A stretch of DNA of 63,588 nucleotides, counting the filler, from Neolecta irregularis DAH-3 (taxonomy: Eukaryota): assembly GCA_001929475.1 (NCBI GenBank). It is 14 parts of 14 records of this genome, joined end to end, with 100 filler letters (N's around TTAATTAATTAA, not from the genome) between each part and the next. Parts side by side here need not be neighbours in the genome. Positions count along the whole stretch, not along the records: positions 35,551 to 46,310 come from LXFE01000173.1; 13 more parts are not named here. One strand, written 5' to 3'. The notes under the pieces were generated by a model. It did not search any database, had not been told where the DNA came from, and worked only from the letters and a program-made list of their open reading frames with translations. Below, one piece after another: positions 3,112 to 54,786 of this stretch (position 1 is the stretch's first letter; the number at the start of each line of letters is the position of its first letter). Position numbers and translations under genes: made by a program.

Positions 3112-3182
3112 AGTTGAACAATTTGATGGACAAGTAACAGCCATCTGGCCACTCTTTTGGTATCAACTTAAAGATCCTACCT

Positions 3183-4669
3183 TTATATAGGAGCTTTAAA
3201 TATCTTGAAATCTGTTGACTTTAATCGATTATCGCGAACCAGGGCATTGGCCCAGTTATCAATGGCCTTTTTGATATCTGTTGAGGTAGATTTTCCTTCA
3301 ATTTCTTGAGCCAGTTGTGACATCTCTTCGGGCTGCATATTTGCCAATACCGCATCGACTTCGTTCAAAACAGAATCAATCATGGCAGGAGATGATTCGC
3401 CAGAAATAGCAAAGTAGTTGCAGTCCTTTAGCGATCCTTTGATAATTCGCTTGTCCTTCTTCGCAGCCTTCTTTTGAGCTTCCTTATTCTTTTTGGCCTC
3501 AAGGGCTTTATTCTTCTCGGCCATTTCTTGTTCCTCCTGTTTACGCACTTCCTCTTCCGCAGTTTTCTTTGCCTCTTCTGCGGCTTGTCGGGCTCCGGCC
3601 TCGCGATCCCATTTTCTTCTTTCCTTCTCTTCTTTCTCTTTTTGCTTAAACATTGCTATTCGCTTATCTTGTTCGAGACAATCATCGACGAGTTTTCGGA
3701 GTCTGGCAGTGTCTTCAGTCTTCTTGCGAGCACGTTCAGCTTTGTTTTTCTTTTCTTGGTAGCGTTTGTTGTCTCGACTAGATCATAAACAAATGTAGGA
3801 ATAAGATCCTCTCACTTATCTGAATCATCTGGGATATCTTTATCCAGATATTCAAAAGATCTCCAAGAGTCAAACTTGTACCAAAAATCGTAAAATTGCT
3901 CGACTTGTTCTCGGGTAGAATCCTCGTTTCCCAGCACTGGGACTGGACGACGCTTAGAAAACCTTGAGTTTAGAGAAAGTGTATGATCCTTCTGCCTACC
4001 GTCCCTCTGCTTCGAATACTCTTCCCCAAAGTTTGTAAAAATTATTCCCTTTTGCTGCTTGTTTCTTAGAAGGTGGATCGACATTGGCTCCCTCGTCAAC
4101 GGAATCAAATTGAGAACGTCTGATTGGATCAGAAAGTACTTCCATCGCTAACACTAAAGACGAGAGATATGGACTGGTATACCTTTCTGAATGCACTTGA
4201 AGAAAGAATCATCATTGACATTGCCGCTTGAAGCCTTCTTGTCTGGATGGTGTTTCAAGACTTTTCTTCGATCTGACAACGTCAACAGACTCAATTGTAG
4301 AGATTACATACAAGCACGCTTGATCTGGTCGTCGGTGGCCTTGTATCTGTATTTTGAGAGACCGAGAACAGCATAATGATCTTGCTGCTTCCATTCTTTG
4401 GGATCTTGAGAAAGAAGACCAGCAGTTTCTGACTCCTCTTCGCTTTCATCGCCTTCATCTTCAACCTTTTTGACGTTGGCCCCTGCTTGGATCCTGTCGT
4501 CCTCGCTAAAAGTTCTGTTGTGACGAGTTCTTCGTGCATGGGCTAGAAACTGGGGGCCTGCGGGTTCAATAGAACGGATTACTGGAGCGGAAATAAAGGC
4601 ATGCGGGAAGAAAGCAGAGATGGAGGCATCGAGGTCTGCAGGAACGGGCGGCAGAGCAATTGAAGCCAT
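3183..4669 (-). CDS. ZUO1: Zuotin, ribosome-associated J-domain co-chaperone (multi-exon)
   Basis: IEPAGPQFLAHARRTRHNRTFSEDD, DPKEWKQQDHYAVLGLSKYRYKAT, HPDK J-domain motif, FYDFWYKFDSWRSFEYLD, charged C-terminal RAC head. Confidence 0.95.
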
Positions 4670-4848
4670 GATGAATGAAAGAAGTTTTCAGACTGGGGGA
4701 TTTGGGTCACCACCGACCTTACCGGGTTGAAGCTGCTACATTACGAATGCTTCAGAGAGCCAGCAAAGGATGGCCCATGTATGCATATATGCTCCTTCTG
4801 GGATGAATCCACAAATGACTTTGACGCACCGACATACAATGACTGACG

Positions 4849-13029
<8,181 letters not shown>

Positions 13030-35204: not shown

Positions 35205-36021
35205 ATGGGGTTTATTTTGGTATATTTTGTATGGCCAGAGTAGTTTTTCTTTTTTCACTAGGAGACTTTATTGTTTGCAGATTATTACTTAAGGCCGCTT
35301 GTTATAACAGGCTATTGAACTAATATACGGGGCAGACAGGCGATCCCGAGTGAGTTGATGTTTCAATCATTCCTACAACGATCCTTTGACTTGGGTAGAC
35401 ACCATTAGTTTCACCTTGTGATTTGAATCCTACAATGGTCATTTCGATTGNNNNNNNNNNNNNNNNNNNNNNNNNNNNNNNNNNNNNNNNNNNNTTAATT
35501 AATTAANNNNNNNNNNNNNNNNNNNNNNNNNNNNNNNNNNNNNNNNNNNNGAGTTACAACACTTAGGCTAGAAATATATCCTGGTCTTATTTGTAACTTC
35601 TGGCGTTAAGCTTACAGTATTAGTCTTAGTACTCGACGCTAAGCAGCTCGATAATTTCTTTCTAGAATAATACTCCAAAACACCCAAGAATGAATACACA
35701 AACCGTGCAAAGAAACGAACGAGATGCAACTATTTCAACGAGTATGTAAAATGATGGGCAACTTTGCTCTATTATGATATGTCATAATTGCCTTGGAAGT
35801 CTTCAAGTTTCTAACAAGCGACTCGGTCGTTCCTTTGCATGCGAGGATTACATAGAATGTAATTCACAATAATGGAGAGCCATAGCGCAGGGAAAAAAAC
35901 AAAGAGAAGAGTATTCGTCGATTATTGGACCATTTGACCATCCGGCCAATAGTTCTTTTAGTAAGCACTATTAACTACCATCCAATACATGGAAACCCCC
36001 CGATCTCCAAAAAAAACTAGT

Positions 36022-39324
<3,303 letters not shown>

Positions 39325-39658
39325 TTATTTGTGTATATAGTAGGATTTTGAAAAAGTCGGGTTGCTTTCAATTCTATTTTGCGGCTTGCAAACTCGGTTG
39401 AGGTGGTGGCAACCAAACCGCCAACTCGAACGCTCGAAATAGGATTCGGCTCCACTTTTCATGCTAAAAAATGTCCGCACAAAGGACTAGGCAACGGTTT
39501 AAATGAAATATCGGCTATACAGTACTGACTTGTAGATCTGAGCGCAATCTCACACCTAATTTTGCGGGGAAACTTGGTGATGCTCCTGACCGGAAGGATC
39601 AGAAACACGTAAATCGAAAACAATTTCAAAAATGTTGACATTTTAGGTAGCAGACCGA

Positions 39659-41452
39659 ATGATGAGACGGTATTCGACGAAACCCGCTATAGGAGGAATG
39701 CCCGGAGGACACCAGGAATCATTTCCAGCAGGACTACGGGCAATTCAACAGACAGCAGTCGCTCAAGAAAACAAAAAACTGCCGCCTGTCAAACCAGCTG
39801 ATAAAAGTGGAAAAGTAGATCCATCGGCATTTTCTGCGTCGAATTTCAATGCCGAGCAATGTACTGCCTCCATGTTGTGTGATGCATTGACATGATAGAC
39901 GTCGAAGCATCAATTCGACATGCAAAGGAGTCGGAACTTCAAACCTTTTATTCTGATCTCAGGAGAATCAAGGAGGAAACCTATGTCAACCTCCAGCGAA
40001 ATGTGTTTCGCAATTACAAGGAATTTGTAGTAATCGCCAAAGAAGTCGCCCACCTGTCATCCGATATGAACACTCTCCGGGAATATCTAACGAATTTGCA
40101 ATCAATTACTGCTCTTCTCAAGAATGATCTTGATTTAGCCCAAGACGAAGACAACAGTATAATTGCACAACGTCGCCATGCAAAATTTAGAAATTCTATT
40201 GCAGATTTGACAACGATCTACGCAAGCCAACTTGCAAGCCTCTGGGAGCGAGTTGAAGGGAGTCAGAAATACGTACCATCATTCCCTGGCCGTCATATTA
40301 TCCGAGAATGTCCAAACTTTGTCGAATTGCACGCAGCTACTTATAAACCAAAGCAACCGGTGTATATTGTCCTACTGGACGATCATTTATTAGTTGCAAC
40401 ATCGAAAACTCGAGCAGGTGCCACCAAACTAGTCGCTGAGAAGTGCTGGAATTTGCTAGACATCGAACTCAAGGATATTCATAATTCATTACAACTCATA
40501 TTCGGAAATGAAACCTACGTGTATACCAGCGAGAAGAATGACGATATGAAAACATTGCTAGCAATCTATAAACGTGCTTGCGAGGAAATGAAGTCCAGCA
40601 TGTTCTGTTTACTAATCTGTTTTAATCTTTTAGGACAGAAATCTGGATCTGTGCCACGAGCCAGAATTCCCAGTACAATCCTGGAGCCCGCAAAGGATCT
40701 TCGTTGGATTGAGGACCGAATGGACGAACTTGACGAATGGATCGCTCATAAGAATTTCGACGACGCCGTAAACTCCATCACCCAGGGTATCATACTTGTG
40801 CTTTCATTTCTGATTCCGTTCAAGGCCGTACAATTACTTTAAGCCAGCAATTTGATGGACCAACAACCGAGATTATTGGTTCAAAGCTTGATGAGCGAGC
40901 TCAACGGCTCTGCATTATACTCTGCACAGAACTATCTGAGAACGCTGGAAAGAAAAATGTGGTTAGACGCACCGTTAGATGGCTCGTTGAACTCGGATTC
41001 GAAGATCGTGCTAGGTCTGCGTTTTCTAGTAGTCGTGACGCTATGATCAAGCAAAGAACAAGGTGTTACTTAACTTCCATATTTACTAACTGACACAGGC
41101 AAATCCTTTTCCAGGGAGAGATTCCGCAATACCTGTCCGACTTTGCACTTGTGCAATTCACTTTAATGAAAAACACATGGGAAATGTGGCAACTGGCTTT
41201 TCAGGAGAACCGGATGGCTTCTGGTATGGGCTGTTTACTTGTGTGAATTCTGATATGCTAGGTTTCGCGGCCTGGGCTGCCAACCAAATTGCACGATTCA
41301 AGGAAACCTTTAGTCGACAGCTCGATGGATTTTCTACCACCGGTGATGAATATAGGAACAGCATTGAGGCCGTTCGAAACCAGATTCCTGTGCTGAGAGA
41401 AGTTGGGATGGACGCTAGTTTTTTATTGAAAGAGATATTACAGCAGGCGTAA
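39659..41452 (+). CDS. EXO84: Exocyst subunit Exo84 (multi-exon)
   Basis: Vps51/Exo84-type N-terminus (LQRNVFRNYKEFVVIAKEV), LWERVEGSQKY..GRHII PH domain, DELDEWIAHKNFDDAV, LREVGMD C-terminus. Confidence 0.88.
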
Positions 41453-41863
41453 GGGTTAGTAGGGATCTTGGGGCTATGTATATTCAAGTTCGTAACTTCT
41501 GTTTGGAATGATTTAGCCTCAACGCAATTTTGTATTTGCCTTACTTTTAGCAAGAAACATCCAGGTTGTACAGCTGCAATGGAGAAGAGGAAAGACAAGA
41601 AAGAAGTAAAAAAGTGATCGAGATCTGTCCAACAAGCACAGTGGCACTTGTCGACTGTCGTCGAATGTCAACGAGAAATCTAAAGCGAGAGGGAAACGAG
41701 ATAAAAAGTCCTCAAGGTCGAAAGAAGAAAAGAAGGACTGGAGAGAAGATCAAGGAAAAGGATGGAATAAGCCAAAGAGATTGATTCTGGGAGGCGTCCT
41801 GATTCAGATATCAAAAGATTTCAGACGACTGAAACAAGATTGCAACAATAGTCTGTGATATTA

Positions 41864-42671
41864 CAGTCGAACCCCGCTATAGGGAACCTCAGTGCAACGA
41901 ATTACTCCTTATAACAAACCCAACTGCTTCCCAAAATTAATTTGTGTGAGGTCTAACGAATCTATCTCTTACTACAAAGTTCGTTAGATTAATGCGAAAT
42001 TCGTTATACTATGAAATGCCGTTCCGCTATCACAAATGAGCAAAAGATTGCTTTGGGTGCCCACCACCTGAATCCTCATCTGGAATATAAGGCTTTAACC
42101 AGTGGTTTATTGAGCAATACAATAGACCGATCTATCACTGCATCATATGCCTCTGAGATACTCTCACCACAGTATAATAGCCTTGATTCTGACATAGCCT
42201 CAAGTAGCCAACAATACCAGAAGCAAAGTACTGACATGGTGAGCAATAGCTTGAATTGGATACAAATAGACTACAAGGATAGAAGAGCATATTATAATAT
42301 CGGAAAGTGTTGAAAGTAATCGATGCAGTCTCGATATCCAGGCAGCAGGATCCGGCGCAGCTACCACTTTTTGAATCCCAGCAAGAGATTCCGAAGCGAA
42401 TTCGTTGGATAACGTCCGGTCATTTTGTAATGGAAGACATGATGTTGGGACATTCTCTCGTAGTCGTGCTAGAAGCGTTGAAAAACCTCATATACATCAC
42501 CATCAAGATAAAGATGGCTGAATCAAGTAATTTTTCTCTCTGATTCATTTGGATTGGATTGGATTGGCTAGGATCTTTGCTTTTTCTATTTTACTATCAT
42601 GATACAACGAATCCGCCTTGTACAAATTCAACACCCTTGAACGCCCCATCCGTTGTAAGCAAGTTCGACTG
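41864..42671 (+). mobile_element. Internally deleted pogo/Tigger-type (Tc1/mariner) DNA transposon
   Basis: TA|CAGTCGAAC...GTTCGACTG|TA termini with TA TSD; internal remnant RSAITNEQKIAL..ASEILS resembles the CENP-B/pogo N-terminal HTH; no DDE region. Confidence 0.85.
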
Positions 42672-42729
42672 TAGCCGTCCTTTCTGGGGTAGTTCTTGCT
42701 TCATTTTCATAATTTTCACTCCAGTTGCC

Positions 42730-43628
42730 ATGCCAAACGCATCTAACCTTAAGCTTAAAGTCACAGCTGGTTCTTGTAAAGATCGTTCTAAGTGCACATT
42801 GGTTTCGATAAACGACCCGACAAATCCAATTCATATTTTGTCCGAGCACTTTGAAGGATATCTCACAGTTCGGGTGAAAGATTTCAATGGCATCTCCTAT
42901 AGTTCGAAAATCATCGTCCAGGACGAGAAATATTTCTCTGATACAAAAGACACAAGTAGTATACAATTCATTGGGAAATTCAAAGGTCGTTACTCCACAA
43001 ATGATATTCTATGGGGTGTATGCCTCTATTAATTCCGTTTCAAAACTGATAAGAGAACGACTTTGACGAGCCCATCAAATCTCATCTTCCAACTGGAACT
43101 TCAGTTGGTTTGTGGGCTCTCAAGATGATCGATGCTGCACTTGAGACGGATCTCTATGCCCCTGAACCTTGGGCGTATTCGCCACTGTACTCAACAATGA
43201 CTCTTCTCCGTACCTCGACCGGTCCACTGCCATCATTTCCAGTCTTTACTCGGCTGAATGAAGATACGTCGTCAATTGTTCCTGACAATCAATCATTATC
43301 ATCATCTTTACGGAGAGAATTCTTCGCAAAAGAGTCGAACCGAAGAACTGTCAATATAGACGAGTCTGTACTTGTAGAAGGCGACTTCTCCCACCCATTT
43401 ATTAACTTCAATAAGATTGCCGTGCATTTACCCGTTGTCGGGCTCGACGTTGATATATTGAAATATTGGAATGGGTTGCCGTTCAGATACGTTTGCAAGA
43501 CGCGAGACGGAAATACCGTCTTCTTTTGCATATATTTTGAACTTATTGAAGAAGAGAAGGAAAAAAAAAGAAATAGAATCGAGAAGGAAGAAACGAAGGA
43601 AAACGATGATGCAATGAGTGTCGACTAG
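42730..43628 (+). CDS. DUF1769 family protein (one intron)
   Basis: LKVTAG, ILSEHFEGYLTVRVKDF, SIQFIGKF, WG/NDFDEPI..LP, IDAALETDLYAPEPWAYSP, PFRYVCKTRDG..FFCIYFEL. Confidence 0.85.
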
Positions 43629-43944
43629 ACATTTTGAGGGAATTCGCCATATGTATTATAATCATTGAAATAGTTGACGAGCCGGTACAGCTCTTCATCA
43701 GTGCGGGAGTGGCATATTCAAAATACACCAGTAATCCAGTTACCAACAAAAACAAGCTTGAACCACCTGTGAACACTCTTTATAGCTTTCCATTTATTTT
43801 CCGGTACTTCAAACAGCGAAGACCTATCAGAAGAATTCTGTTCTTCCCAGTTAACTTTGATGTCCATTGCATTCTAATAACCACAAAAGAAAACATTCGG
43901 AAACAATCGCTATTGTCTGGTTCTTTCGTGGCACCTCAAATAGC

Positions 43945-45978
43945 ATGGTTTGCGATGACTTCCAAATTGATCAATGGATTCAAGATATCTCTCCCTCTGA
44001 CAGACCGCATACATGGGGAACAGTATCTGATGAAGACACATCTGAAGACAAAAATGCTGGGCAACCCATAGAAATATCTGCCATCTTTGGGAAAGTCAAA
44101 ATGTTGGACGGACTAAAATGCTATGATGGAAATCTACTGTTGCTCGATCAGTGGCTCAGTGAAGTAGAGCAACATCTTAAAATTCGGAATCTACCTATAT
44201 ACGGTGGATATTTCAGTGGAAATTCTTCTGATGGGACTATCAGAAGTTGTCTATCAACAACATGCGGATCCGAGGCCTCCTGGTCATTCATGCTCTATCA
44301 GCTTCGGGAAGTAACTGAAAAGTTGACCGGCACGGCGAAGGACTGGTATGAACGATACTGTCATGATGGTTTTATGCCCCCTAACTGCTGGAGGAAAAAC
44401 GAGGATAATGACTATGCGGGAGAGGTTGGACTTTATCAGCTGCTGACAATTCATTTTCGAAGCATACAAGATGAAAATCTTTCCGCAAAACCATTTTGCG
44501 ACCTCAAACTCCCGACCCTCGATTTCCTTGACGGGGAACTAACTACAATTTATCCTACAGGCCCTCTATTTGAGAAGGAAAGTCCAAGTCAAGAATTTTT
44601 GAAGGGCAAAATCCAGTCACTCATTCGTTGCAATAATTGCTGGGGATATGGGCACTTGGCTAGAAAATGCCCCTCGCCTCTGACATTAAACTCATTAGCA
44701 TACAAGGAGCCTATTCGATATGCTGTACCGGCGCATTTTCAATCACCTGCTCCAGACACATTTACTCCGCCAACAACCCCTCTACTATCCCCATTATACC
44801 AGACAAATCAACAGAACTGTATACATCAGGTGGAACATTTTAGTCCTGGGAAGGATGTGTCAACTTTTCCATTCACTGCTGTTCCTCCTGTAAGACTTCC
44901 CCGCCCACAAATGTTACAGGGATTTCGCTCACAAGTTCGTTTGACGACAGACTTGGCCGCAGTCCGACACTCTCGTTCAGTCAGGGAAGACAAGATTCTG
45001 GAATCCACCTGCCTCTATCTTCTACAAGGCAAGATTACCTTTCCTCCTGAACTCAACCATGCTATCAAAGACTTTATTCAATTTCGAGGACTTCGGGTAC
45101 AAGGCGATGTTGTAATGGATCGCAAGAACCGTATAGTTGTTTCATCTTCAGCTGAGAGAGAGAAAATATACCTCGACTTTCATAGGTCTTCTGGTCATCA
45201 ATATATCAGTGGCACAATGACTACAATCGCAGAAAACTATTGGTGGCCTTGTTTTGCTCATTTCGTCCAATCTAGGATCAGTTATTGCCAAGAATGTTTG
45301 AAATATGCTCGGCCTCTGAATACTGCAAATACAGTAGCTTTTCCTACTCTTCCGTCGCACATTTTTGAACGATGGATGGTTGTTGTATCACCTTTGCTCA
45401 AAACAACTTCCGGAGGTAACAGATATCTCGTCATAGCAGTCGAAATCTCTACTCGTTGGATTGAGGCAATTCCCGTACAGAATAAAGAACCAATTACAGT
45501 GGCTTCGCGTCTCTACAAAATATTTGAGAAATTCGGTGCAGCCAAGTTTCTCCAAAGTGACCACGGTGCAGTTTTCATTAATGCAGTAATTGATGAACTA
45601 AATATTCTCTCCAATGGTCATCTTCATATTTTCACACCATATCATCCACGTACTCGAGGTTGGATAGAAAAGATTAACACATTCGGGTTTGTGAATAAGT
45701 TAACAAAGGAAAGTCAAACTCAATGGGATGAAGCACCTCTTGAATTGGCATTGATCACTCAGCGATCCTCTCTGGATCCAGCCACAGGCGAGAGTCCGTT
45801 ATGGCTTGTTTGGGGTCATCTCTCATGCTCTGCAATTGAGTCGTTTGGAGATGTTGACAAGAAGGGTGTACTTCAGAGGATCCAAGCTGCCTTTGCGCTG
45901 AACATCCAAACGAAAAACATAACATCTGGGTTAGGCGATGGAATTGAAAAGATTGCATACCGTCTGGACAAGGTGTGA
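43945..45978 (+). CDS. Ty3/gypsy-derived Gag-CCHC-integrase fusion ORF (677 aa) lacking PR/RT/RNase H
   Basis: Capsid-like YDGN..LDQWLSEVE, LTGTAKDWY; CNNCWGYGHLARKC knuckle; H2C2 (FHRSSGH..YWWP..CQEC); core SDHG-x35-E intact but first Asp position reads WMVV; no stops. Confidence 0.85.
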   Translation: MVCDDFQIDQWIQDISPSDRPHTWGTVSDEDTSEDKNAGQPIEISAIFGKVKMLDGLKCYDGNLLLLDQWLSEVEQHLKIRNLPIYGGYFSGNSSDGTIRSCLSTTCGSEASWSFMLYQLREVTEKLTGTAKDWYERYCHDGFMPPNCWRKNEDNDYAGEVGLYQLLTIHFRSIQDENLSAKPFCDLKLPTLDFLDGELTTIYPTGPLFEKESPSQEFLKGKIQSLIRCNNCWGYGHLARKCPSPLTLNSLAYKEPIRYAVPAHFQSPAPDTFTPPTTPLLSPLYQTNQQNCIHQVEHFSPGKDVSTFPFTAVPPVRLPRPQMLQGFRSQVRLTTDLAAVRHSRSVREDKILESTCLYLLQGKITFPPELNHAIKDFIQFRGLRVQGDVVMDRKNRIVVSSSAEREKIYLDFHRSSGHQYISGTMTTIAENYWWPCFAHFVQSRISYCQECLKYARPLNTANTVAFPTLPSHIFERWMVVVSPLLKTTSGGNRYLVIAVEISTRWIEAIPVQNKEPITVASRLYKIFEKFGAAKFLQSDHGAVFINAVIDELNILSNGHLHIFTPYHPRTRGWIEKINTFGFVNKLTKESQTQWDEAPLELALITQRSSLDPATGESPLWLVWGHLSCSAIESFGDVDKKGVLQRIQAAFALNIQTKNITSGLGDGIEKIAYRLDKV

Positions 45979-46142
45979 ACTGTTGATCTCACTGTTGTTG
46001 GCTTTTTCGCTTATCATATTTGTATCGCTGGGTCTGGACTGCATATCAAGTCCAAGCCAAGCATTTATTCATGTCAACTCCTGTTATAATCTATTGGTGT
46101 AGATAACCAGGTGAATTGATCCATGTTTGTCTGAGGTGTGAG

Positions 46143-46240
46143 CAGCGTTCCTAACCGACTGGACCAAATAGACCGACCAGACCAGGGCCTCTGGTCTTGT
46201 CGGTCTAAGTAGACCATAGACTGGTCCAGACGGTCTACAC
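46143..46240. mobile_element. hAT-like MITE/end fragment
   Basis: CAGCGTTCC start with repeated GACC/GGTC motifs in both orientations (AGACC...GGTCT). Confidence 0.45.
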
Positions 46241-46445
46241 CATACTATACATGTAGACAATATACTCTCCTTGGGAGTTAGATAGCTTAGCTTTTGTAGT
46301 ATATTTTATANNNNNNNNNNNNNNNNNNNNNNNNNNNNNNNNNNNNNNNNNNNNTTAATTAATTAANNNNNNNNNNNNNNNNNNNNNNNNNNNNNNNNNN
46401 NNNNNNNNNNGAGCTTGCAAGTAATAATAAATTTCTGATAACTAG

Positions 46446-47319
46446 GACACGTAAGCCAGTACAAGTTCAAGACATTGCTGCAAGGTTTTCTCACAATGAC
46501 TATACGAATGAAAATGATTGGGCTATTGAGATTCAAACTAGATATGGGCTATTCAAGGCACCTCCTGACATAAAACTGCTACATCAAGATGTTCTAAGGG
46601 TCTGCAACATTGCCATACACGGCGATCGACCAATGTCGGTAAATATTAGACGACAACTTATGGACCTACCCCTAAATTCGTGGGCACAGCATTCGACTCG
46701 CTACTCAGTCACCTTACCTGAAGGGTACGACACTATTGTATTGATTTTTCTCGAGATATTTAGCAAGAGTGCTGATAAAGATGTGATCACTATTTACGAT
46801 CCAACCGAGAAGATGCTTTTCATTCAAAGTAAAGACTTGTACCTGCTTATCGTTTCAATTGGGCCTGGCCATTATGAAGTATTAAGGCATTCTAAATCGC
46901 TCAACAATCTTATCCAAACTACGATAGTTGCAGGCAATGCTGAAATCGACTATGAACAAAACAATTATGCTTTCGAGCTATTTAAAAAAATAGTGACTCA
47001 TGTTGATCAGCATGCTACGATTCCTGATGCTCTAAATAGGGATACGGTTCGCTCCAACAACAAGGACGAGCAATCGATTGCAGCAACAGCATTGGGCACA
47101 GTGGCACAAGCAATTTTTCAACCTCAATCTCGCCCAAGGGGGGGTAGGTGGTGGGGTACGTGGAATAACGAGACAATATTTTATCGCGATATCGTAACAG
47201 CAGTGCTCTCTAGCTTACGTGAAAAGATTGAAGCTGGTCCGTTCCGCAAAAATTTGTTCCAAAAGGCCAAAACTGGCGCTTTCAAAGACACGAGTATCAT
47301 TATTACCTACCAAAAGTGA
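46446..47319 (+). CDS. Family copy C of the PAN-like + unknown-domain proteins; exon 2 only (exon 1 lost at contig edge)
   Basis: Acceptor CTGATAACTAG at 46435-46445 in the same phase, then ARFSHNDYTNENDWAIEIQTRYG..VLRVC..YDTIVLIFLEIF..TIYDPTEKMLFIQSKDLYLLIVSIGPGHY..YRDIVTAVL. Confidence 0.8.
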
Positions 47320-47691
47320 TGCTTGATTCAAAGTAAAACAAAGGTAAGACGTGGCTGGTTTTGTAACAATTTTTGTATGAAGACAATAGTTGGGCTATTC
47401 TGTAATCAAGTTTACTTTAGACGCAGCTATTTTTGTAATAGTTTTGAATGAATAAGACTAGGTTGTATTATTGGTAACTTGGCCAGGTCTGGACCGCCTA
47501 TCTATGATCATCAACGGATGTCCATCACTACCTAATTATCCACTCTCCAAGATGGCGTTGTTCCTGTATGTTTAGATTAATATATATGTTGGAATGGTTA
47601 TATATTTTGCATTGGCGTTGGATTATTATTTATTTATCAATGTGTTGTGGACGATTGATTGATTGTTTCCAGTGACTTGCGAAATATCTTA

Positions 47692-47830
47692 GGTCCGTTC
47701 CGCAAGAGTTTGTTCGAAAAGACCGAAACTGGCGCTTTTACTGACACTACTGTAAGTGATAAAAACAAAGGTCAGACGCAGCTATTTTTGTAGTAGTTTT
47801 GTAAGCAAGATAATATTTGGATTGTTCTAG
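47692..47830 (+). repeat. Degenerate duplicate of the 3' end and 3' flank of family copy C
   Basis: GGTCCGTTCCGCAAGAGTTTGTTCGAAAAGACCGAAACTGGCGCTTT vs 47236 GGTCCGTTCCGCAAAAATTTGTTCCAAAAGGCCAAAACTGGCGCTTT, followed by the shared AAAACAAAGGT.AGACG flank. Confidence 0.8.
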
Positions 47831-47915
47831 TAATTATGTTTGCTTTTGTAATCTATAATGAAATGTTAAAAAGTACTTATGAGGTATCCGTACACTGAGA
47901 TAACCAAACCCACCC

Positions 47916-48508
47916 AGCGATAACATTGGCGCTCCTAGAATTCTCAATGTCTCATGGGAAGATAAAGGTGGCCTGGTCAGCATTAAACAAGATATACTCG
48001 ATACAATTCAACTCCCATTACAACGTCCCGAACTCTTCCATTCCTGATGAAAAAGCGATCTGATATATTACTTTACAGGCCACCCGGGACTGAAAAAACA
48101 CTCCTCGTGAAAGCAGTAGCTACTACCTTTTCACTCAACGTTTTCAGTATAAAAGGATCAGAATTGTTAAATATGAATATTGGAGAATCTGAAGCAAATG
48201 TTGGCTGAGTATTTCAACGGGCACGAGATGCTAAACCTTGTGTTGTATTCTTTGATGAACTAGATTCGGTTGCTCCGAAACGAGGCAATCAGGGTGACAG
48301 CGGCGGTGTAATGGACTGTATTGTTTCTCAACTATTAGCTGAATTAGATGGAATGTCAACTACAGACGACGGTGGTGGTTGGAGCTACGGTCTAGATTTA
48401 TTTGATAGCGCGTTACTTCGACCCGGAAGATTTGATAAAATGCTGTATTGTGGCGTTTGTACAACTCATCAAGAACAACTCGGTATCCTACAAGCTCTCA
48501 CCCGAAAG
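47916..48508 (+). pseudogene. PEX6: PEX6 AAA-ATPase D2 fragment, decayed
   Basis: [31 protein letters not shown] [frameshift] [62 protein letters not shown]; stop at 48206, broken Walker A, deletion before LLRPGRFDK. Confidence 0.9.
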
Positions 48509-48584
48509 TACCTCCCCCTAGCAGAGTCAATAGACTAAATTGTACCGTCAATCCACGTAAGAATCCACATTCAAGAAACAGGTT

Positions 48585-49209
48585 TCAATCCATTCTCAAT
48601 CCGCGAAATTTCATCCAAATTAAGCTACCCATCGTTAACAATCTACTACAAAACACACGAAAAGAGATTACCCTAGCGAGTACTTTACCCTTTATTAAAC
48701 CAAGAGGAACAGGTCCATAGTCTCGCGAATCAATCGAATTCGACAAATTATCACCGACAATCCACACGTGGCCTTGAGGCACCTATATCCAATCAAAATA
48801 CTTTACTCGAAGCTGATACCTTGACACACTTCATTTTAGTCTGACTCGGATCAAAAAATACTACATCATTCGGCTACCCACAATCTCAGCAATCATCATA
48901 ATCTGGGTTTTCCCTTCATACCATCCCAATTATCCGCTTAGATACCAACACACCCAACTTTCTCGGCGATTCCGAAATAATGATATCCCCAACCCGACAA
49001 TCTCGTCCATTTTTGTACCGTATTTTATCCACAAATAGGTAATCGCCAACGCAATTTAGAGTAGGTAACATTGATGCCCCGTAACATAACTCAATATCGA
49101 AAATGTGGCCGCAGAATAACTGAACTGCACATCCCACTTTCAACGTCAAGCTAATCGCTTTACAAGAGCGTTTGTAGATGCTTTTGAACTTGGGATATAT
49201 CGATGTCAT
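48585..49209 (-). CDS. IMP1: Mitochondrial inner membrane peptidase subunit 1 (S26, multi-exon)
   Basis: GASMLPTLN (catalytic Ser), VSKRIIGM (Lys), [34 protein letters not shown]. Confidence 0.88.
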
Positions 49210-49579
49210 TTGAATGACAAAAGAACAAGAACCGTTTGATCGCTGGGGAAAAAGAAAAGAGGAGTATCGTGATCAGCGCGTTTGCCAAAAATAATTACCA
49301 GAGTGGAATAATAATTTGGCATTGGTGGCGTTTTTGAGTGCCTCACAGCATCCCTGGAATCGATTTGATGATTATTTGTATGTATAGTAAAATAAGTCTC
49401 TCTTCCCTTCTCCTGGGTGTATAGAAGCTTAAAAGGGGAAATTGGTGTCGCAAGCGATAATTCCGGAAAAAGATCTGATCGCCAAAACATTGCTTTTCCT
49501 GGGAAACTCGAGGTTCTCATCCTTTTGATCCGCCTCATCGTTCTACATAGGCTCACCTTTTGTCCAATTAAAAAAGGGC

Positions 49580-49800
49580 CATTTTGCAGCGGTAGCGCGG
49601 GGAGTGGGGACGGCCAAGATTGCAAGCGGGTTATTGGACAAGACTTACGAGTAGCTGTGGCGAGTGTATTCTGTGCAGATGAAGCTGGACAACAAGTTTC
49701 TGCCGTAGAGTCTGACGATTATGGAAGTGAGAGAGTTGACGAGGGAAACCGATAATAGGGACGGGGTGAATGTGCTGTTTGGGCTGGACATGCTGAAGGA
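49580..49800 (+). pseudogene. DDI1: DDI1 retroviral-like aspartic protease domain fragment, decayed
   Basis: FAAVARGVGTAKI/LWRVYSVQMKLDNKFLP*SLTIME/..VNVLFGLDMLK matches Ddi1 RVP; two intron-like gaps (49622-49654, 49727-49758), TAG at 49706. Confidence 0.75.
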
Positions 49801-49953
49801 GCTGGCGATAGGACAAATTATCAAAATGACGCTTGCAGATGAAGCAATCAAGTAGGTGAACACCCTTTTCGAGTTGGTATTACAGACATTTTTGGCAGGA
49901 CAAATGGCATTTCCAATTGTAGCATATTTTTATACAATTCCATATTTCCTTTT

Positions 49954-51233
49954 TCATAAGACATAATTTTGAACATACCACCCTGCTGCAATTGCAACAA
50001 ACATTGCTCCAGCGCTCAACAAGACGTGGGTATTACTCATTTGCTTATGACCATGCCTTCTAAGGTCTTTGATGGCTAATAGAAGCATCTCATCGCCGTA
50101 GCTCAACGTCATATTGTCCTCTATAGGAAGTCTAGAGCAACTGTGCTGTCCAATTCGGCGCCATTCGCCGAATGAGTTTGGCGGGTTTTGGGTGAAGAGA
50201 TCGCTTGCAGATTCAATCAAATCTTCAAAGGGGAGATTTGGCGGAATTCTACTGAGAACCGAATGCAGGATATCGTGATCATCTTGAGAAATATCGAGTA
50301 TTTCTTTTCGCCGATAGATTAAAATCTAAAAAAGTTAAATTAGAGTCCTCCGGCCGCGCAAGACGCACAATTGCCAAAAGATATATAGGCATCAACGGAT
50401 TTGAAGCAAGGAAGAAGTCAAAAAGTCTAGTGGCTGTTTCCAAATCCAGTATCTCATGGGAAAATAACGTCAGGAAAGGAGCAAGTGCGTAATGGGGCTC
50501 GACTTGAGATATATGATGACCTAGACGATAATCTGCTGCTTTCACCAGGGACGGAAGAAGGGAGAGGTAGGCCAGAACCGGCGAGAGATTCGGAAGCATA
50601 CAATCTACACTCAGACATTTTTTAGCAAAGATAGCAAGTACCTCGAATGTGAAAGAGCACAAAGTGGTCTATAATATCCGTGGAGGTTTTATAACCGCAT
50701 GTGAGAAGAAATACAGATGCAATGTCATGGAAGCCCTGGCCAATAAACCATTGCGGTTGAGGACAGGTGTACCTGGAAATACGATAATCCAGGGTGTCTC
50801 CTCAAAACCTGGACAATGAGTTCATTCAATTCCGTCTTCTTATTTTCTAGTTCTAACGGCGATAGATCTGTCGATATATTAACGTAATAAAGAAGAAAAT
50901 CCTACCGTTCGGATAATAAATGAACGACCTCTTCACGTCCAGGTCGACCTGTTCCTCCTGTTCATTGGGGACAATATTTCTCCATTTGTTTCCTGCCTCA
51001 TGATTTTCGGGAACTCCTAGCAGTAAAGGCCGGCGATGAGCCTTTATTCTTTGTAATGGATTCTGATACCAAGCTTGACGTCTGAAGCCATTGTGGATTA
51101 ACCCTCCGTCGGATAAACACAGCTGTTGCAATAATGGCCGATTTCGATTGGTGATTGCATCCGTGATTGTTTGTAGCCTATGTGCTCTGGTTTGTGTTTT
51201 CGTGCGTTTGAATCTTCGGGGTATGGGTCCCAT
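49954..51233 (-). CDS. TBC-domain Rab GAP, Gyp8/TBC1D20-like (multi-exon; possible extra 5' exon to ~51368)
   Basis: GGLIHNGFRRQAW/PLLLG, EEQVDLDVKRSF, YFQ/GFHDIASVFL, FLTLFSHEI..RLFDFFLA..PLMPIYL, C-terminal TM anchor. Confidence 0.85.
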
Positions 51234-51650
51234 ACTGATTGGAGGTGGTTGACTGATTTTGAATTTATCACGAGAGGTTGATTCCTATATTGCGAAACTC
51301 GTCCCGATGATTGATAACATATTCACAGTTTCATAAAACTGGAGGATGTGGATCTTATCATATGACATGAAACTTAAGTATTGTACCATTCATTCTTTTT
51401 GCGGTCTGGAGGTGAGATATTGCCAAGATGTCCGCTTCAATCATAACATCGAATTCTTGTATGTCACACAATACTAGTATGAATGAGACAATCTATCAAT
51501 CGAATCAACTGACAATCTAATCCAGCTACTTGGTACACATTCACATAGATGACATGCATCAACCGGCGATCTTCTATGAAATGAAAGCGATGTACTTGTA
51601 ATTAAAACACCTCTTTAACAATATATCACAAAGGAAGTACTGATGCACCT

Positions 51651-52191
51651 CTAGTGCTCACGGACCGAAAGTTTTATTGGTAAAGCACGTCTCTTTGAAA
51701 TAAACAAGTCCTCCAGTCCATATGGTTCGTCCTTGTTCACCAAATCACCATTAAAATGAAACACAAATTTCGCCAGGAACATTCGCATCTCGATATATGC
51801 CATGTTTCGACCAATGCAAGCCCGTGGACCATAAGAGAAAGGGTTAAGCGGGTCTAGCTGAACGTCTTCTTCAAGCCATCGTTCCGGTCTGAACGTGTAC
51901 GCCTCAGGATAGTATCGATCGTCATAGTGAATTGTCCAGGTGTGAGTACTGATCTGGGTGTCTGGAGGAATAACTTGATTCCCGATGACAATTCCATTTG
52001 ATCCCACGGTTCGTGGAAGACCGCCTTATAAAGTCAGAATAGTCTCTCATTGTTGAGTACCTGGGACTGGAGGAAACATTCGCAGGCCTTCTTCTATGCA
52101 TGCGTTGAGATAAGGAAGGTCTGTTAATTTTGCGGAGAGAATGTCCTCAGTTTTGGCAAAGTTGGAAAGTATTTCGTTGGAAAGTTTATCC
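51651..52191 (-). CDS. Cytochrome P450, C-terminal fragment
   Basis: LPYLNACIEEGLRMFPP (ExxR), FRPERWL (PERF), PFSYGPRACIGRNMAY (heme Cys). Confidence 0.92.
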
Positions 52192-52291: not shown

Positions 52292-53423
52292 GAAAGGGCA
52301 CTCCGTTTAAGTGGGAGACTGCCCAAGAGACTGCATTTCAAAAGATTAAAGATCTAGAGGTTAGAACACCATGGTTGAAACCGATAGATGATAAAGCAGA
52401 TAAACCTATATGGGTAATCTGTGACGTGAGTGATTCTGGGATCAGCTGTATCCTTGCCCAGGGGATAGACTGGCATTCAGCAAGACCCATGTCATTCGAG
52501 AGTCGGCAGTATACGTCTGCAGAAGTGAACTACCCGACTCATGAAAAGGAGATGCTGGCCATTATTTTTCCACTCAAAAAATGGAGACACCATTTAATCG
52601 GCCTTCCTTTTGTGTTACTAACAGACCACGAACCGTTAAAGCATTGGTAAACGCAAACTCATCTCTCGCGCCAGCAGCTACTATGGCTCGACTTCTTGAG
52701 TGAATTCGATTTTGACCTACGTTATATCGAAGGTAAGGTTAACATCGCGGCTGATGCGTTATCACGATATACATCTGAGGATACTTGTGAGGATCAATAT
52801 TTAAAAGAGCAGGGGAAGCCCACCTCTTATACACATTGATTCAGACAAACGAACTTGGAGATCTACGAATCACAAACTATCGATAATACTATTGATAGGC
52901 CAGAACAATTACCAGCAAGTTTCACAAAGGCGAAGACAACTACGATCGGACAGAACGACACTAGAAGCGACTCAGGAGACAATTTGTTATACGACTTGTG
53001 GGACGAGACCGGTCGAGAACAAATTAAAATAACAATCGGCTTGGGAAACGGGATGAAAGAGGCAATGGGGCACCCAGAAACAAGGAGTGTGGCGGAACCG
53101 ACCACAAAGGAGGAGTGTGGTCGGAGCAAGGAACCTAATGAGCTGGCGACCGACAACACTCTGCCTCAAACAACACCATTAACAGATACCATTTGCAATC
53201 TTGCTTCAGCTCAAATTTTGCCTATGGAGATAACGGAAATTGTGGCCGCATACGAGGATGATCCTGTCCTCGGTCCGGTAAAGGCGAATCCCGAACGATT
53301 TTCAAATTATATAAAGAGGGACGAGCTCCTCTACATCAACCAACGCCTCTGCATTCCTCCCTTGTCTTCTGTTCTATCCCACCTCATCCACGCCTATCAC
53401 GATGTAACCAGCTCCTCTCTATA
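52292..53423 (+). mobile_element. Ty3/gypsy pol remnant (RT C-term/RNase H, start of integrase), disabled
   Basis: PFKWETAQETAFQKIK, CDVSDSGI, NYPTHEKEMLAI, TDHEPLKHW* (stop 52648), [25 protein letters not shown], later YEDDP..LLYINQRLCIP..YHD. Confidence 0.9.
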
Positions 53424-53784
53424 GAAGCTGATTAGTGACGATATGTGGAGCTTCTGTGCTCGCTGATNNNNNNNNNNNNNNNNNNNNNNNNNNNNNNNNN
53501 NNNNNNNNNNNTTAATTAATTAANNNNNNNNNNNNNNNNNNNNNNNNNNNNNNNNNNNNNNNNNNNNCATCGATTATAGAAGAAGTCGAGGAGGAAGTTG
53601 AAGATGAGGTATTAGAGACCTCATCTAATGATTCATTCATAGAAGTAGGGGATTGCGTGGGTCGCAGAACCCGATCGCATGCATAGCGCCGGCGGAGCCT
53701 GACCCAAAGCCCCATAAACCACGTTATCAAAGCCAGGTTTTTAAGTCTTATTTCCGAATTGGTCCATGAGCTGAAATATTACTA

Positions 53785-54452
53785 CAGTCAAACCTGGCTA
53801 TAGGGAACCTCCGTATAACGAATTACCCGTTATAACGAATCAATTGATTTGTATGGGGTTTAACGAATTTAAACCATACTACGAAGTTCGTAAGATTAAT
53901 GCAAGATTCACTATAAAAAGAATACATGAAATGCCCCTCTGCTATTACAAATGAGCAAAAGATTGCTCTGCGTACCCACCCCTGCGGAGGCTTGGGCTTA
54001 GCACACATGGGCCTGAATTTGCAGTCGGCAGGGAGGCAGGTTAGGCAACTGCCCTGAACACACTGCCTATTTAAGCCGGCGCTAAGCCCAAGCTAGTGGC
54101 GTAGTCCATCCGCAACACTGCCCGGCCCCGGCCCCGGCCTGGCCCCAGGATTACCACTTTTTGAATCCAAGCAAGAGATCCTGAAGTGGATTCATTAGAT
54201 AACATCTGGTTATGTTGTAATAGAAGACATGATGTTGCGACTTTCTCTCGTAGTCAAGGTAGATGTGATCAAAAATGGCATATAAATCATATTATAGATG
54301 GTAGGATCGGGTTATTTTTCTCTCCAATTCATTTGGTATGGATTTGCTTGGATCTTGTTTATTTTCTATTTGACTATCTCCATACAACGAATCCTCGTTA
54401 TAACGAACTGAAAACGCTGCCAAGCCACATTCGTTATAAACAGGTTTGACTG
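53785..54452 (+). mobile_element. Second internally deleted pogo-type element with unrelated internal sequence
   Basis: TA|CAGTCAAACCTG...CAGGTTTGACTG|TA; left ~200 bp and right ~300 bp homologous to 41864-42671; 53981-54149 replaced by a GC-rich hairpin and hAT-like end. Confidence 0.88.
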
Positions 54453-54786
54453 TATCATGAACAGTCCGTTATGTACAGTAAACATTTGATCTACGTGCTT
54501 TCTCAAGAATTGTTCCTCGTATGAAATCGGTTTCCATAGACGTGGCTCCTTTGATAGTTAATCATGTTCATCCTATTGGGTAATGCAGCTTTATAATTCC
54601 AAAGCTTTGGAAATTAGGCAACTGAGAGTAGTAAATATCTTTGGAAACCATTGAGTGTGTCATGCAAAATTCCAAGCCATAAGCAATGTTCATTCCCAGA
54701 TTGTGTGGAGGAAATACATTGAAATATAACAAATAGATCAAATATCGTACCGGGATCAAGAAGTCATCAGTGATGCTGCATGTACT

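Follow-up and report, generated by a model that had tools for sequence, protein, structure and literature searches.

An open Gag-like and integrase reading frame in Neolecta irregularis DAH-3, probably an immobile Ty3/gypsy relic with antisense transcription

A single open frame of 677 codons lies on the plus strand at 43945-45978 of the window, by which we mean the whole stretch of 63,588 nucleotides analyzed here and to which all positions refer. The frame begins with the ATG at 43945 and ends with the TGA at 45976-45978, and the nearest in-frame stop on its 5′ side is located at 43858-43860. The locus contains the following features:

42730-43628, plus strand: Duc1 (PF08588) gene, the upstream neighbor, with a 38-nt intron at 43018-43055 (Pfam, cDNA contig)
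43629-43944, no strand: 316-nt spacer from the Duc1 stop to the ORF start, covered by a single DNA contig (DNA contigs, flank alignment)
43945-45978, plus strand: intact 677-aa ORF (P0001) with a Gag-like region, CCHC knuckle, spacer, and integrase N-terminal domain and core (ORF call)
43945-44610, plus strand: Gag-like N-terminal region, aa 1-222 (home-made Ty3/gypsy Gag profile)
44629-44670, plus strand: CCHC zinc knuckle, aa 229-242 (motif and sub-cut-off Pfam match)
44677-45000, plus strand: spacer, aa 245-352, its first part Pro-rich, without similarity to relatives
45001-45306, plus strand: integrase N-terminal extension and HHCC zinc-binding domain with H413, H418, C448, and C451 (Pfam, alignment, AF2)
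45352-45819, plus strand: predicted integrase catalytic-core fold, aa about 470-625 (phmmer, alignment, AF2, Foldseek)
45382-45384, plus strand: codon GTT for Val480, at the site of the first catalytic Asp (alignment)
45559-45561 and 45667-45669, plus strand: catalytic D539 and E575, both retained (alignment)
45830-45871, minus strand: intron of 42 nt, GTACAC...CAG, in a minus-strand transcript (spliced out in a cDNA contig)
45926-45960, minus strand: intron of 35 nt, GTATGC..CTAAC..CAG, in a minus-strand transcript (spliced out in a cDNA contig)
45979-46142, no strand: downstream flank, covered by the single DNA contig shown (DNA contigs, six-frame profile search)
46143-46310, no strand: start of a multi-copy repeat that reaches the contig end, joined here by many contigs that differ upstream (contigs)
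46311-46410, no strand: assembly linker N44-TTAATTAATTAA-N44, followed by another contig (sequence)

Within this frame, a Gag-like region is joined straight to an integrase. No Pfam match to protease (PR), RT, or RNase H (RH) was obtained in the 677-aa ORF, tblastn with five full Gag-Pol relatives matched only 44977-46002 at this locus, and no part of 162 relatives, whether PR, RT, RH, or other, resembles the spacer (aa 245-360). The linker after the CCHC knuckle is indeed Pro-rich, with 16 Pro among the 81 residues of aa 243-323 versus 6.1% across the whole protein. These results agree with the first-pass annotation of this DNA, which had described an uninterrupted 677-aa ORF starting about 320 bp past a neighboring gene, in which Gag, a CCHC knuckle, and a Pro-rich linker are followed directly by the integrase H2C2 domain and core, with no PR, RT, or RH. 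Codon usage in the ORF is host-like (RSCU r of 0.595, versus 0.61 in host samples), and neither codon usage nor RIP-type dinucleotide indices told the ORF and host genes apart.

The integrase half is of the same type as that of Ty3/gypsy (Metaviridae) elements such as Ty3 (PDB 7q5b). Integrase_H2C2 (PF17921) matches aa 403-454 with an E value of 7e-10 (39.3 bits, cut-off 25.5), and the HHCC residues H413, H418, C448, and C451 occupy columns that are conserved in 99% of 141 relatives. The rve core scores 16.7 bits against Pfam, which is below the cut-off of 32.6. Nevertheless, we accept that the predicted core is an RNase-H-like integrase fold because of phmmer, AF2, and Foldseek evidence. A phmmer search with the ORF gave 19,740 matches at E<=1e-3 (best 2.8e-39), and for the best 150 of these the best stretches all fall inside aa 290-663. 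The AF2 integrase model has a pLDDT of 80.8, with values >90 in the core, and Foldseek matches this model to the PFV intasome (9.2e-17) and Ty3 integrase (1.5e-11). Furthermore, a profile of the ORF integrase plus 35 relatives matches Ty3-G Gag-Pol at 5e-71.

The catalytic D,D-35-E triad is incomplete. The column for the first catalytic Asp holds D in 99% of 141 relatives and Val480 in the ORF, and this GTT codon is one A-to-T change from Asp GAT. Both D539 and E575, which are 35 residues apart, are retained. Thus, alignment supports what had been read from the DNA at first pass, namely that the first catalytic Asp is lost, that the D-x35-E pair is kept, and that the usual AVD reads AVE. Among highly conserved integrase columns, the ORF keeps 20 of 24, compared with a mean of 22.7 for the 141 relatives (aligned in fast MAFFT mode).

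The ORF integrase also ends before the C-terminal SH3 domain, into which its relatives continue. Homology covers the stretch from the RH/IN boundary of complete elements (aa 971 of relative P0026 corresponds to ORF aa 353) to the ORF stop, past which P0026 extends for about 90 residues. A profile built from the C-terminal parts of the relatives (SH3_Tf2-1 / p58_C ± chromodomain) found nothing in six frames of 45850-46310. The first-pass annotation had overlooked this missing SH3 domain.

Evidence for the Gag-like half is of a different kind. Residues 1-222 score 7.0 bits against a home-made Ty3/gypsy Gag profile, whereas 1000 shuffles reach a maximum of 2.2. The profile matches are colinear, covering aa 67-84 and then aa 120-140 (the LTGTAKDWY motif), and a Gag-like motif followed by a CCHC knuckle is the usual Ty3/gypsy order. 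The knuckle itself, CNNCWGYGHLARKC at aa 229-242, is present as a motif and scores 15.8-16.9 bits against Pfam zf-CCHC, under the cut-off of 20.8. However, no Retrotrans_gag, Ty3_capsid, or other Gag Pfam domain was matched in the ORF. An hhalign comparison of aa 1-260 with a 30-row Gag alignment matched the knuckle alone (probability 7.6%), and a PDB sequence search with the same residues gave four nucleocapsid knuckles at non-significant E values of 0.17-1.2. AF2 modeling of aa 1-260 without an alignment was unusable (pLDDT 29.3), so the structure prediction that had been proposed as a check was informative for the integrase fold but not for the Gag part. Atlas scores of 0.86-0.88 for the Gag-like region serve as leads only. 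As a result, the 'capsid-like Gag' originally claimed is retained here as a weak Gag-like signal in the N-terminal half, suggested by the profile score and without a Pfam counterpart.

The flanks of the ORF bear on the question of long terminal repeats. No direct repeat pair was found in 38000-52000 or in the whole window, and local alignment of the two flanks gave a score of 19 versus a shuffle mean of 18.3, with the downstream side comprising the 332 nt to the contig end. Because the 316-nt spacer at 43629-43944 is represented by one DNA contig only and does not resemble the downstream flank, it contains no 5′ LTR. The lack of an LTR pair noted at first pass therefore holds within the contig. 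No domain remnant was detected in the 164 nt past the stop (45979-46142), and the window contains 0 tRNA genes, which were sought in relation to a primer-binding site or to Pol III targeting. The contig end and linker 332 nt 3′ of the ORF stop had likewise been overlooked.

Copy number was assessed from contig depth, which is not itself a copy number. The DNA-run contigs over the ORF have depths of 411.8 and 453.6, and a 5.7-kb helicase/Exo84 contig has a depth of 449.7. Depths summed per bin come to 2161-5228 over 41654-42730, 7536 over 35551-35909, and 4864 over the bin holding 46143-46310. Another contig, with a depth of 363.6, is 150/170 identical (roughly 88%) to 45179-45348. Per-contig depth thus suggests that the ORF, which occurs once in the window, is single-copy, with one roughly 88%-identical relative elsewhere in the genome. 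The copy-number check proposed at first pass accordingly points to one copy, not to many near-identical ones.

That second sequence raises the concern that the ORF could be an assembly artefact, in which two paralogous elements were joined as a chimera at the shared word 45322-45348. In both runs the contig graph is interrupted at 45319-45348, which is where the 150/170-identical contig ends. The assembly is also highly fragmented: the window consists of short contigs placed in series, and 13 linkers occur in its 63.6 kb. However, an independent DNA contig for 42533-45348 runs with 0 differences from Duc1 through the spacer, Gag, and the linker into the integrase zinc finger. Because this contig already crosses the Gag-to-IN junction, that junction does not depend on the join at 45322-45348. 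Moreover, the frame and the integrase alignment are continuous across the join, and depth is alike on either side (411.8 and 453.6). We therefore regard an artefact of this type as extremely improbable.

Relatives of the ORF are distant and cover the integrase only. The best are <=35% identical, and no relative above 35% identity and no orthologue was found in the protein collections searched or in a metagenome DNA scan. Likewise, the Gag half has no relative in these collections or in the scan, the exact 677-aa protein is absent from a collection of 15 billion, and a word-index search with aa 1-350 among shorter proteins left 0 of 431 candidates at E<=0.1. One metagenome locus, arising from 33 pattern matches, was rejected as a chance occurrence of the word KDWYERYC in an unrelated 525-aa frame. 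The relatives carry RVT_1, RT_RNaseH, Integrase_H2C2, and rve. In a FastTree phylogeny, the ORF integrase has a branch length of 2.32 versus a median of 0.65, and the smallest well-supported clade that includes it has 53 rows, of which 21 have RT before IN and 31 have an order that could not be assigned.

Gmr1-like elements are gypsy-like elements with the copia-like order Gag-PR-IN-RT-RH. Perhaps, then, the ORF is the 5′ part of such an element, having lost protease alone, with RT-RH past the contig end. Integrase precedes RT in 11 of 162 relatives, with a gap of 215-402 residues (44 in one row), and the relatives P0005 and P0033 have the order SCAN-CCHC-PR-IN-RT. P0005 is also the best 'longer' word-search match, and the contig ends only 332 nt past the stop. 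In contrast, 0 of the 10 IN-before-RT rows fall in the 53-row clade of the ORF, although the ORF is long-branched. No integrase C-terminal domain lies past the stop in any frame, 45979-46142 is free of domain remnants, the sequence beyond is a repeat, the copies of which are preceded by different sequences, and no trace of protease is present. On balance, this origin appears very improbable.

Transcripts from the locus are represented in run X2. Although this run is labeled 'DNA?', we read its contigs as cDNA because the introns of Exo84 and Duc1 have been removed (5 joints, GT/GC..AG). These contigs cover the whole ORF with 0 differences, their total cover is 43056-46170, and their sequences are identical to those of the DNA run over the locus. 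One cDNA contig is common to Duc1 and the first 1.4 kb of the ORF. The cDNA contig for 45319-46170 skips 45830-45871 and 45926-45960, both of which have CT..AC ends. When read on the minus strand, the two introns have 5′ splice sites and branch-point-like motifs like those of host introns. These minus-strand junctions are the only ones at the ORF 3′ end, and the unspliced form is absent there from the cDNA contigs, which can drop rarer forms. Part at least of the RNA from the locus is therefore a spliced antisense transcript, and this spliced RNA has no frame longer than 84 codons. The expression check suggested in the first-pass annotation is thus positive for cDNA cover of the ORF, but the contigs are strandless and both ORF junctions are on the minus strand.

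Given these findings, we consider that the ORF is probably an immobile, multiply deleted Ty3/gypsy relic that is transcribed at least partly in antisense. A single-copy retrotransposon of the Metaviridae type, 316 nt 3′ of Duc1 and presumably with the standard order Gag-PR-RT-RH-IN, would have lost both LTRs, the PR-RT-RH block, the SH3/chromo part of the integrase C terminus, and the first catalytic Asp. Because of these losses the relic would neither reverse-transcribe nor integrate, and nothing else would be able to mobilize it. The PR-RT-RH deletion may have kept the reading frame by chance. The open frame would mean either that the relic is young in point mutations or that its divergence mostly accrued in a still-active lineage. 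A spliced non-coding antisense RNA would enter the locus from the side of the neighboring repeat, and a host function would presumably be absent. If so, the locus represents ordinary retrotransposon decay in a compact genome and is notable solely for its clean Gag plus IN architecture.

Several points count against a relic. A frame of 2 kb free of stops and frameshifts, a pLDDT of 80.8, and the retention of 20 of 24 conserved columns would also be expected if a host gene were under purifying selection. For a chance outcome, it is somewhat tidy that three separate losses should spare precisely Gag plus IN, in frame and with a start that looks natural; luck, at about 1 in 3, is needed for the internal deletion only, which is our own estimate rather than a computed value. 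Also, several customary signs of domestication are present: the ORF is apparently single-copy, lacks terminal repeats, uses codons much as the host does, and has cDNA cover. Finally, the branch of 2.32 implies divergence that, had it accrued at this site with no constraint, would have disrupted the frame.

Several of these points would also favor a lineage-specific domesticated gene, in which a Gag-(dead) integrase fusion is retained as a nucleic-acid- or capsid-binding protein. The first-pass annotation had inferred an exapted host protein or restriction factor. Its Gag-IN anatomy, broken triad, and lack of LTRs all stand, and contig depths and cDNA cover point toward its reading, whereas the exaptation step is not borne out: no orthologue was found and the splice junctions are antisense. 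We judge domestication to be unlikely. In its favor are the intact 677-codon frame, the depths that suggest a single copy, the confident integrase fold (AF2, Foldseek), and the retention of HHCC, D539, and E575, the first Asp being the only catalytic residue lost. Furthermore, the related integrase sequence elsewhere in the genome is a possible target. By analogy with Drt2 and p22, both of which act on Ty1, a domesticated Gag-IN protein might poison particle or intasome assembly of a related low-copy Ty3/gypsy family. On the other hand, the missing orthologue (relatives of the organism may be unsampled), the antisense junctions, the marginal Gag signal, and a frame that stops where homology stops, beside a repeat and a contig end, all speak against it. 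A merely young in-frame deletion derivative would look like an exapted gene.

Precedents for such domestication exist. Saccharomyces cerevisiae DRT2 is a Ty1/copia-derived, Gag-only gene for which purifying selection and restriction have been shown experimentally (PMC13709905). DRT2 and the p22/p18 of Ty1 offer a model for a relic that restricts its relatives, being a fungal relic at a fixed locus, a decayed insertion in which the capsid ORF is still open; unlike DRT2, the ORF is Ty3/gypsy-derived, also carries an integrase, and is known here from sequence (PMC13709905). Vertebrate GIN1/GIN2 likewise have a gypsy-type integrase with the HHCC finger retained, and the DDE triad of GIN2 is not clearly kept; these genes derive from GIN DNA transposons, lack Gag, have introns, and have been conserved for hundreds of millions of years, whereas the ORF has a Gag part and no conservation in the collections searched (PMC3424704). 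Degenerate DDE triads are also seen in the Cbp1/CENP-B-like domesticated pogo transposases of fission yeasts, which are single-copy and lack terminal repeats. The report on these genes lists as signs of domestication no terminal repeats, a single copy, and the same locus in divergent strains. Cbp1 belongs to a different transposase superfamily, and the ORF shares with it the lack of terminal repeats and, as judged by depth, the single copy (PMC10085805).

A more specific proposal is a young, lineage-specific exaptation beside Duc1, in which Gag-CCHC fused to an integrase that is catalytically dead yet well folded (HHCC and core without SH3) would act as a decoy, co-assembling with particles or intasomes of the related low-copy Ty3/gypsy family and poisoning them, with its output tuned by the spliced antisense RNA entering from the neighboring repeat. 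We find this quite unlikely. If true, the ORF would parallel yeast DRT2 on the Ty3/gypsy side, its protein combining two interfering modules. More generally, if it is retained by the host, we know of no earlier fusion gene of Gag and integrase derived from Ty3/gypsy in a fungus-type genome (a literature search showed none among the 15 listed of 340 matching papers), and it would be a natural two-module candidate restriction factor against a related element in the same genome.

Two further candidates were set aside. LARD/TRIM-like internally deleted LTR elements keep their LTRs, are mobilized in trans, and usually occur in many copies. They resemble the ORF in having lost the polymerase block while keeping other parts, whereas the ORF lacks LTRs and is apparently single-copy; a still-mobile non-autonomous element was ruled out by the absence of LTRs and of any depth sign of near-identical extra copies. 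A Duc1-ORF fusion was ruled out by Duc1's own stop and by the in-frame stop at 43858 in the 316-nt spacer.

The ORF (P0001), which encodes the 677-aa candidate Gag-integrase protein, lies in the following setting.

43945-45978, + strand: the ORF, a single uninterrupted frame of 677 codons
ORF aa 228-244: zf-CCHC (Pfam 15.8 bits, under the 20.8 cut-off)
ORF aa 403-454: Integrase_H2C2 (Pfam E 7e-10, over the cut-off)
ORF aa 488-552: rve (Pfam 16.7 bits, under the 32.6 cut-off)
Upstream neighbor: the Duc1 (PF08588) gene, ending 316 nt before the ORF ATG

The first-pass annotation had described one open 677-aa frame starting about 320 bp after a housekeeping gene and carrying a CCHC knuckle and a Pro-rich linker, and all of these features are present. 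The knuckle reads CNNCWGYGHLARKC directly in the sequence, prolines make up 16 of the 81 residues at positions 243-323, and a stop in frame with the ORF sits 85 nt 5′ of the ATG. The remaining ORFs in the window belong to ordinary housekeeping genes of fungal type, including those for sterol methyltransferase, ATR, ISN1, Anp1, and Exo84.

The integrase half is genuine and, as judged from alignments and modeling, is predicted to be well folded and catalytically dead. A zinc-finger motif of the form H-x4-H-x29-C-x2-C can be read directly from the sequence. HMMER searching of 1.84 billion representatives yielded 19,740 matches at E<=1e-3 (best 2.8e-39), at identities of 35% or less, and for all 150 matches listed the best-matching stretch falls within ORF aa 290-663. 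The relatives examined with Pfam are polyproteins of Ty3/gypsy, the closest family to the ORF, and carry RVT_1, RT_RNaseH, Integrase_H2C2, and rve. By BLASTP, ORF aa 353-676 aligns to aa 971-1305 of the complete element P0026, beginning directly after its RNase H. The integrase profile matches Ty3-G Gag-Pol at 5e-71, and an AF2 model built from a 36-row alignment (pLDDT 80.8, core >90) is matched by Foldseek to the PFV intasome (9.2e-17) and Ty3 integrase. The H2C2 and core assignments made at first reading hold, as does the proposed loss of the first catalytic Asp with retention of the D-x35-E pair. Among 24 columns conserved at >=85% in a 142-row alignment, the ORF keeps 20 (other 141 rows: mean 22.7, 5th percentile 21) and has lost D480V, G483P, P533A, and R576K. 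Residue 480, which is D in 99% of the other rows, is Val (GTT), and D539 and E575 are retained.

Gag identity of the N-terminal half is weakly supported, and the earlier description of it as capsid-like survives only in part. A home-built profile of 30 Gag segments taken from relatives scores 12.2 bits in three colinear pieces (aa 67-84, aa 120-140 with LTGTAKDWY inside, and the knuckle). With the knuckle left out, aa 1-222 score 7.0 bits versus a maximum of 2.2 in 1000 shuffles, any score being reported for 645 of these. No Gag Pfam family matches the ORF, even at E 10. We found no relatives of this half among shorter proteins, PDB sequences matched it at the knuckle alone (E 0.17-1.2), and hhalign found nothing but the knuckle. 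A language-model atlas returned Retrotrans_gag/Ty3_capsid clusters at 0.86-0.88, a mere lead by the tool's calibration, and a single-sequence fold gave a pLDDT of 29.

On four counts the ORF does not qualify as an autonomous Ty3/gypsy member: it lacks LTRs, protease/reverse transcriptase/RNase H (PR/RT/RH), a complete catalytic triad, and the C-terminal domain of the integrase. The absence of an LTR pair and of PR/RT/RH had been recognized at first reading, and both observations stand. No flanking direct repeat pair was found, and the 316 nt upstream and 332 nt downstream of the ORF align at shuffle level (score 19; shuffles mean 18.3, maximum 27). Gag-Pol queries from five full relatives matched only 44977-46002 at the locus (tblastn), and the spacer (aa 245-360) resembles none of 162 relatives. 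The ORF ends where relatives run on into an SH3-like C-terminal domain, for which a profile found no match in six frames of 45850-46310.

Integrase precedes RT in 11 of the 162 relatives, and an ancestor of that order could have lost its protease alone, with RT now beyond the contig end. We consider this improbable: the smallest supported clade around the ORF (53 rows, 21 with RT before integrase) holds none of the 10 integrase-first rows, and the C-terminal domain is missing at the ORF stop. For these two reasons, the comparisons favor a standard-order ancestor that would have undergone a PR-RT-RH deletion. Three deletions would then lie behind the ORF, with an in-frame outcome required for the internal one alone. 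The ORF also forms the longest end branch among 142 integrases (2.32 vs a median of 0.65; FastTree).

The window consists of short contigs with 13 linkers (N44-TTAATTAATTAA-N44) between them. Each linker carries stops in all frames, and neighborhood across it is an assembly decision rather than an observation. The linkers fall within 16497-62529 (e.g., 46311-46410), and the joined contigs are about 1-11 kb. The ORF's contig (35551-46310) leaves 332 nt beyond the stop and has high-depth repeats at both ends (35551-35909 and 46143-46310). The latter contains palindromic GACCAGACC/GGTCTGGTC motifs, is abundant in cDNA as well, and has no second copy in the rest of the window.

Two public runs contain the locus. 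In the DNA run X1, the independent contigs 42533-45348 (Duc1, spacer, Gag, linker, zinc finger; depth 411.8) and 45322-46171 (depth 453.6) show 0 differences. Because these depths resemble that of a 5.7-kb helicase/Exo84 contig (449.7) and are far below summed bin depths at repeats (2161-5228 at 41654-42730, 7536 at 35551-35909, and 4864 in the bin with 46143-46310), the ORF is apparently single-copy, although the tool warns that per-contig depths are not copy numbers. A further X1 contig (depth 363.6) differs at 20 of 170 positions from 45179-45348, so at least one diverged integrase relative exists elsewhere in the genome. The contig graphs of both runs break at 45319-45348, a word shared with this relative, so a paralogue swap in the part after aa 468 has a small probability. 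That the ORF is an assembly chimera is very unlikely.

The second run, X2, is labeled "DNA?" and carries another organism label. Four introns of Exo84 and that of Duc1 (36-39 nt, GT/GC..AG ends) are absent from its contigs, and therefore we read it as cDNA of the same organism. These host introns are very short (39496-40633; 43018-43055), and the one at 40598-40633 in Exo84 has GC..AG ends. X2 shows 0 differences over the ORF and, among the differences listed, one away from repeats (at 36125); 122 further differences exist. One contig links spliced Duc1 with the ORF up to 45348, and a second spans 45319 to about 46170 but skips two introns.

45830-45871, − strand: 42-nt intron (CT..AC; minus strand GTACAC...CAG)
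45926-45960, − strand: 35-nt intron (CT..AC; minus strand GTATGC..CTAAC..CAG)

Their splice signals are of the same kind as those of host introns. Because both are spliced out and the resulting RNA has no frame >84 codons, a spliced antisense non-coding RNA certainly overlaps the ORF 3′ end. Here the spliced contig by itself (141.8 x 282/359) accounts for the whole bin depth of 111.3, and an unspliced form was therefore not assembled, although contigs can lose rarer forms. The 5′ part of the antisense transcript extends into the multi-copy repeat beginning at 46143. The cDNA contigs cover the whole frame and may in part come from a sense mRNA, but the sole strand-informative signal is antisense.

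Taken together, we regard the ORF as probably an immobile retrotransposon relic. The exapted host protein proposed earlier seems rather unlikely, even though the frame is open (composition-only probability 7e-18), apparently single-copy, free of LTRs, host-like in codon usage (r 0.595 vs 0.61), and covered by cDNA contigs, with a preserved integrase fold whose triad is damaged by a lone Val codon one base from Asp. These points fit a kept gene and a point-mutation-young relic alike, and none separates them. Furthermore, protein searches and a metagenome DNA scan revealed no orthologue, the ORF protein itself is absent from the protein collection searched, and strand-informative RNA is antisense only. 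The ORF end also adjoins a repeat and the contig end, within a stretch of other transposon debris (a pogo/CENP-B-like HTH fragment at 42011-42313 and an RNase H-integrase fragment with stops at 52294-53467). The closest functional precedents for domestication are yeast DRT2/p22 (PMC13709905), vertebrate GIN genes (PMC3424704), and the Cbp1 transposase genes of fission yeasts, in which the triad is degenerate (PMC10085805); the last of these papers also sets out criteria for naming a transposon domesticated. A limited literature search showed no fungal Gag-integrase fusion gene among the 15 papers listed of 340 matching ones, which does not prove its absence.

As the first-pass annotation had noted for other remnants, 52294-53467 (+) carries at least two in-frame stops. 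This separate contig starts within an RNase H domain belonging to a different Ty3/gypsy element, and at the contig end it runs into the start of an integrase N-terminal region; it is a decayed element that has no DNA similarity to the ORF. The multi-copy repeat at 41654-42730, just 5′ of Duc1, recurs at 53922-54454 and 27083-27202. Within this repeat region, a 100-aa frame encodes an HTH_ABP1_N domain of the CENP-B/pogo type (42011-42313). The summed DNA depth of the region is 5-12x that of its flanks, and variant contigs and joints are numerous. Within 46411-47846 (+), the contig after that of the ORF starts with a 302-codon frame (ATG ORF 46633-47319) that matches no Pfam family and is followed by a diverged direct duplication of its own 3′ end (47236-47418 vs 47692-47846, 67-86% identical).
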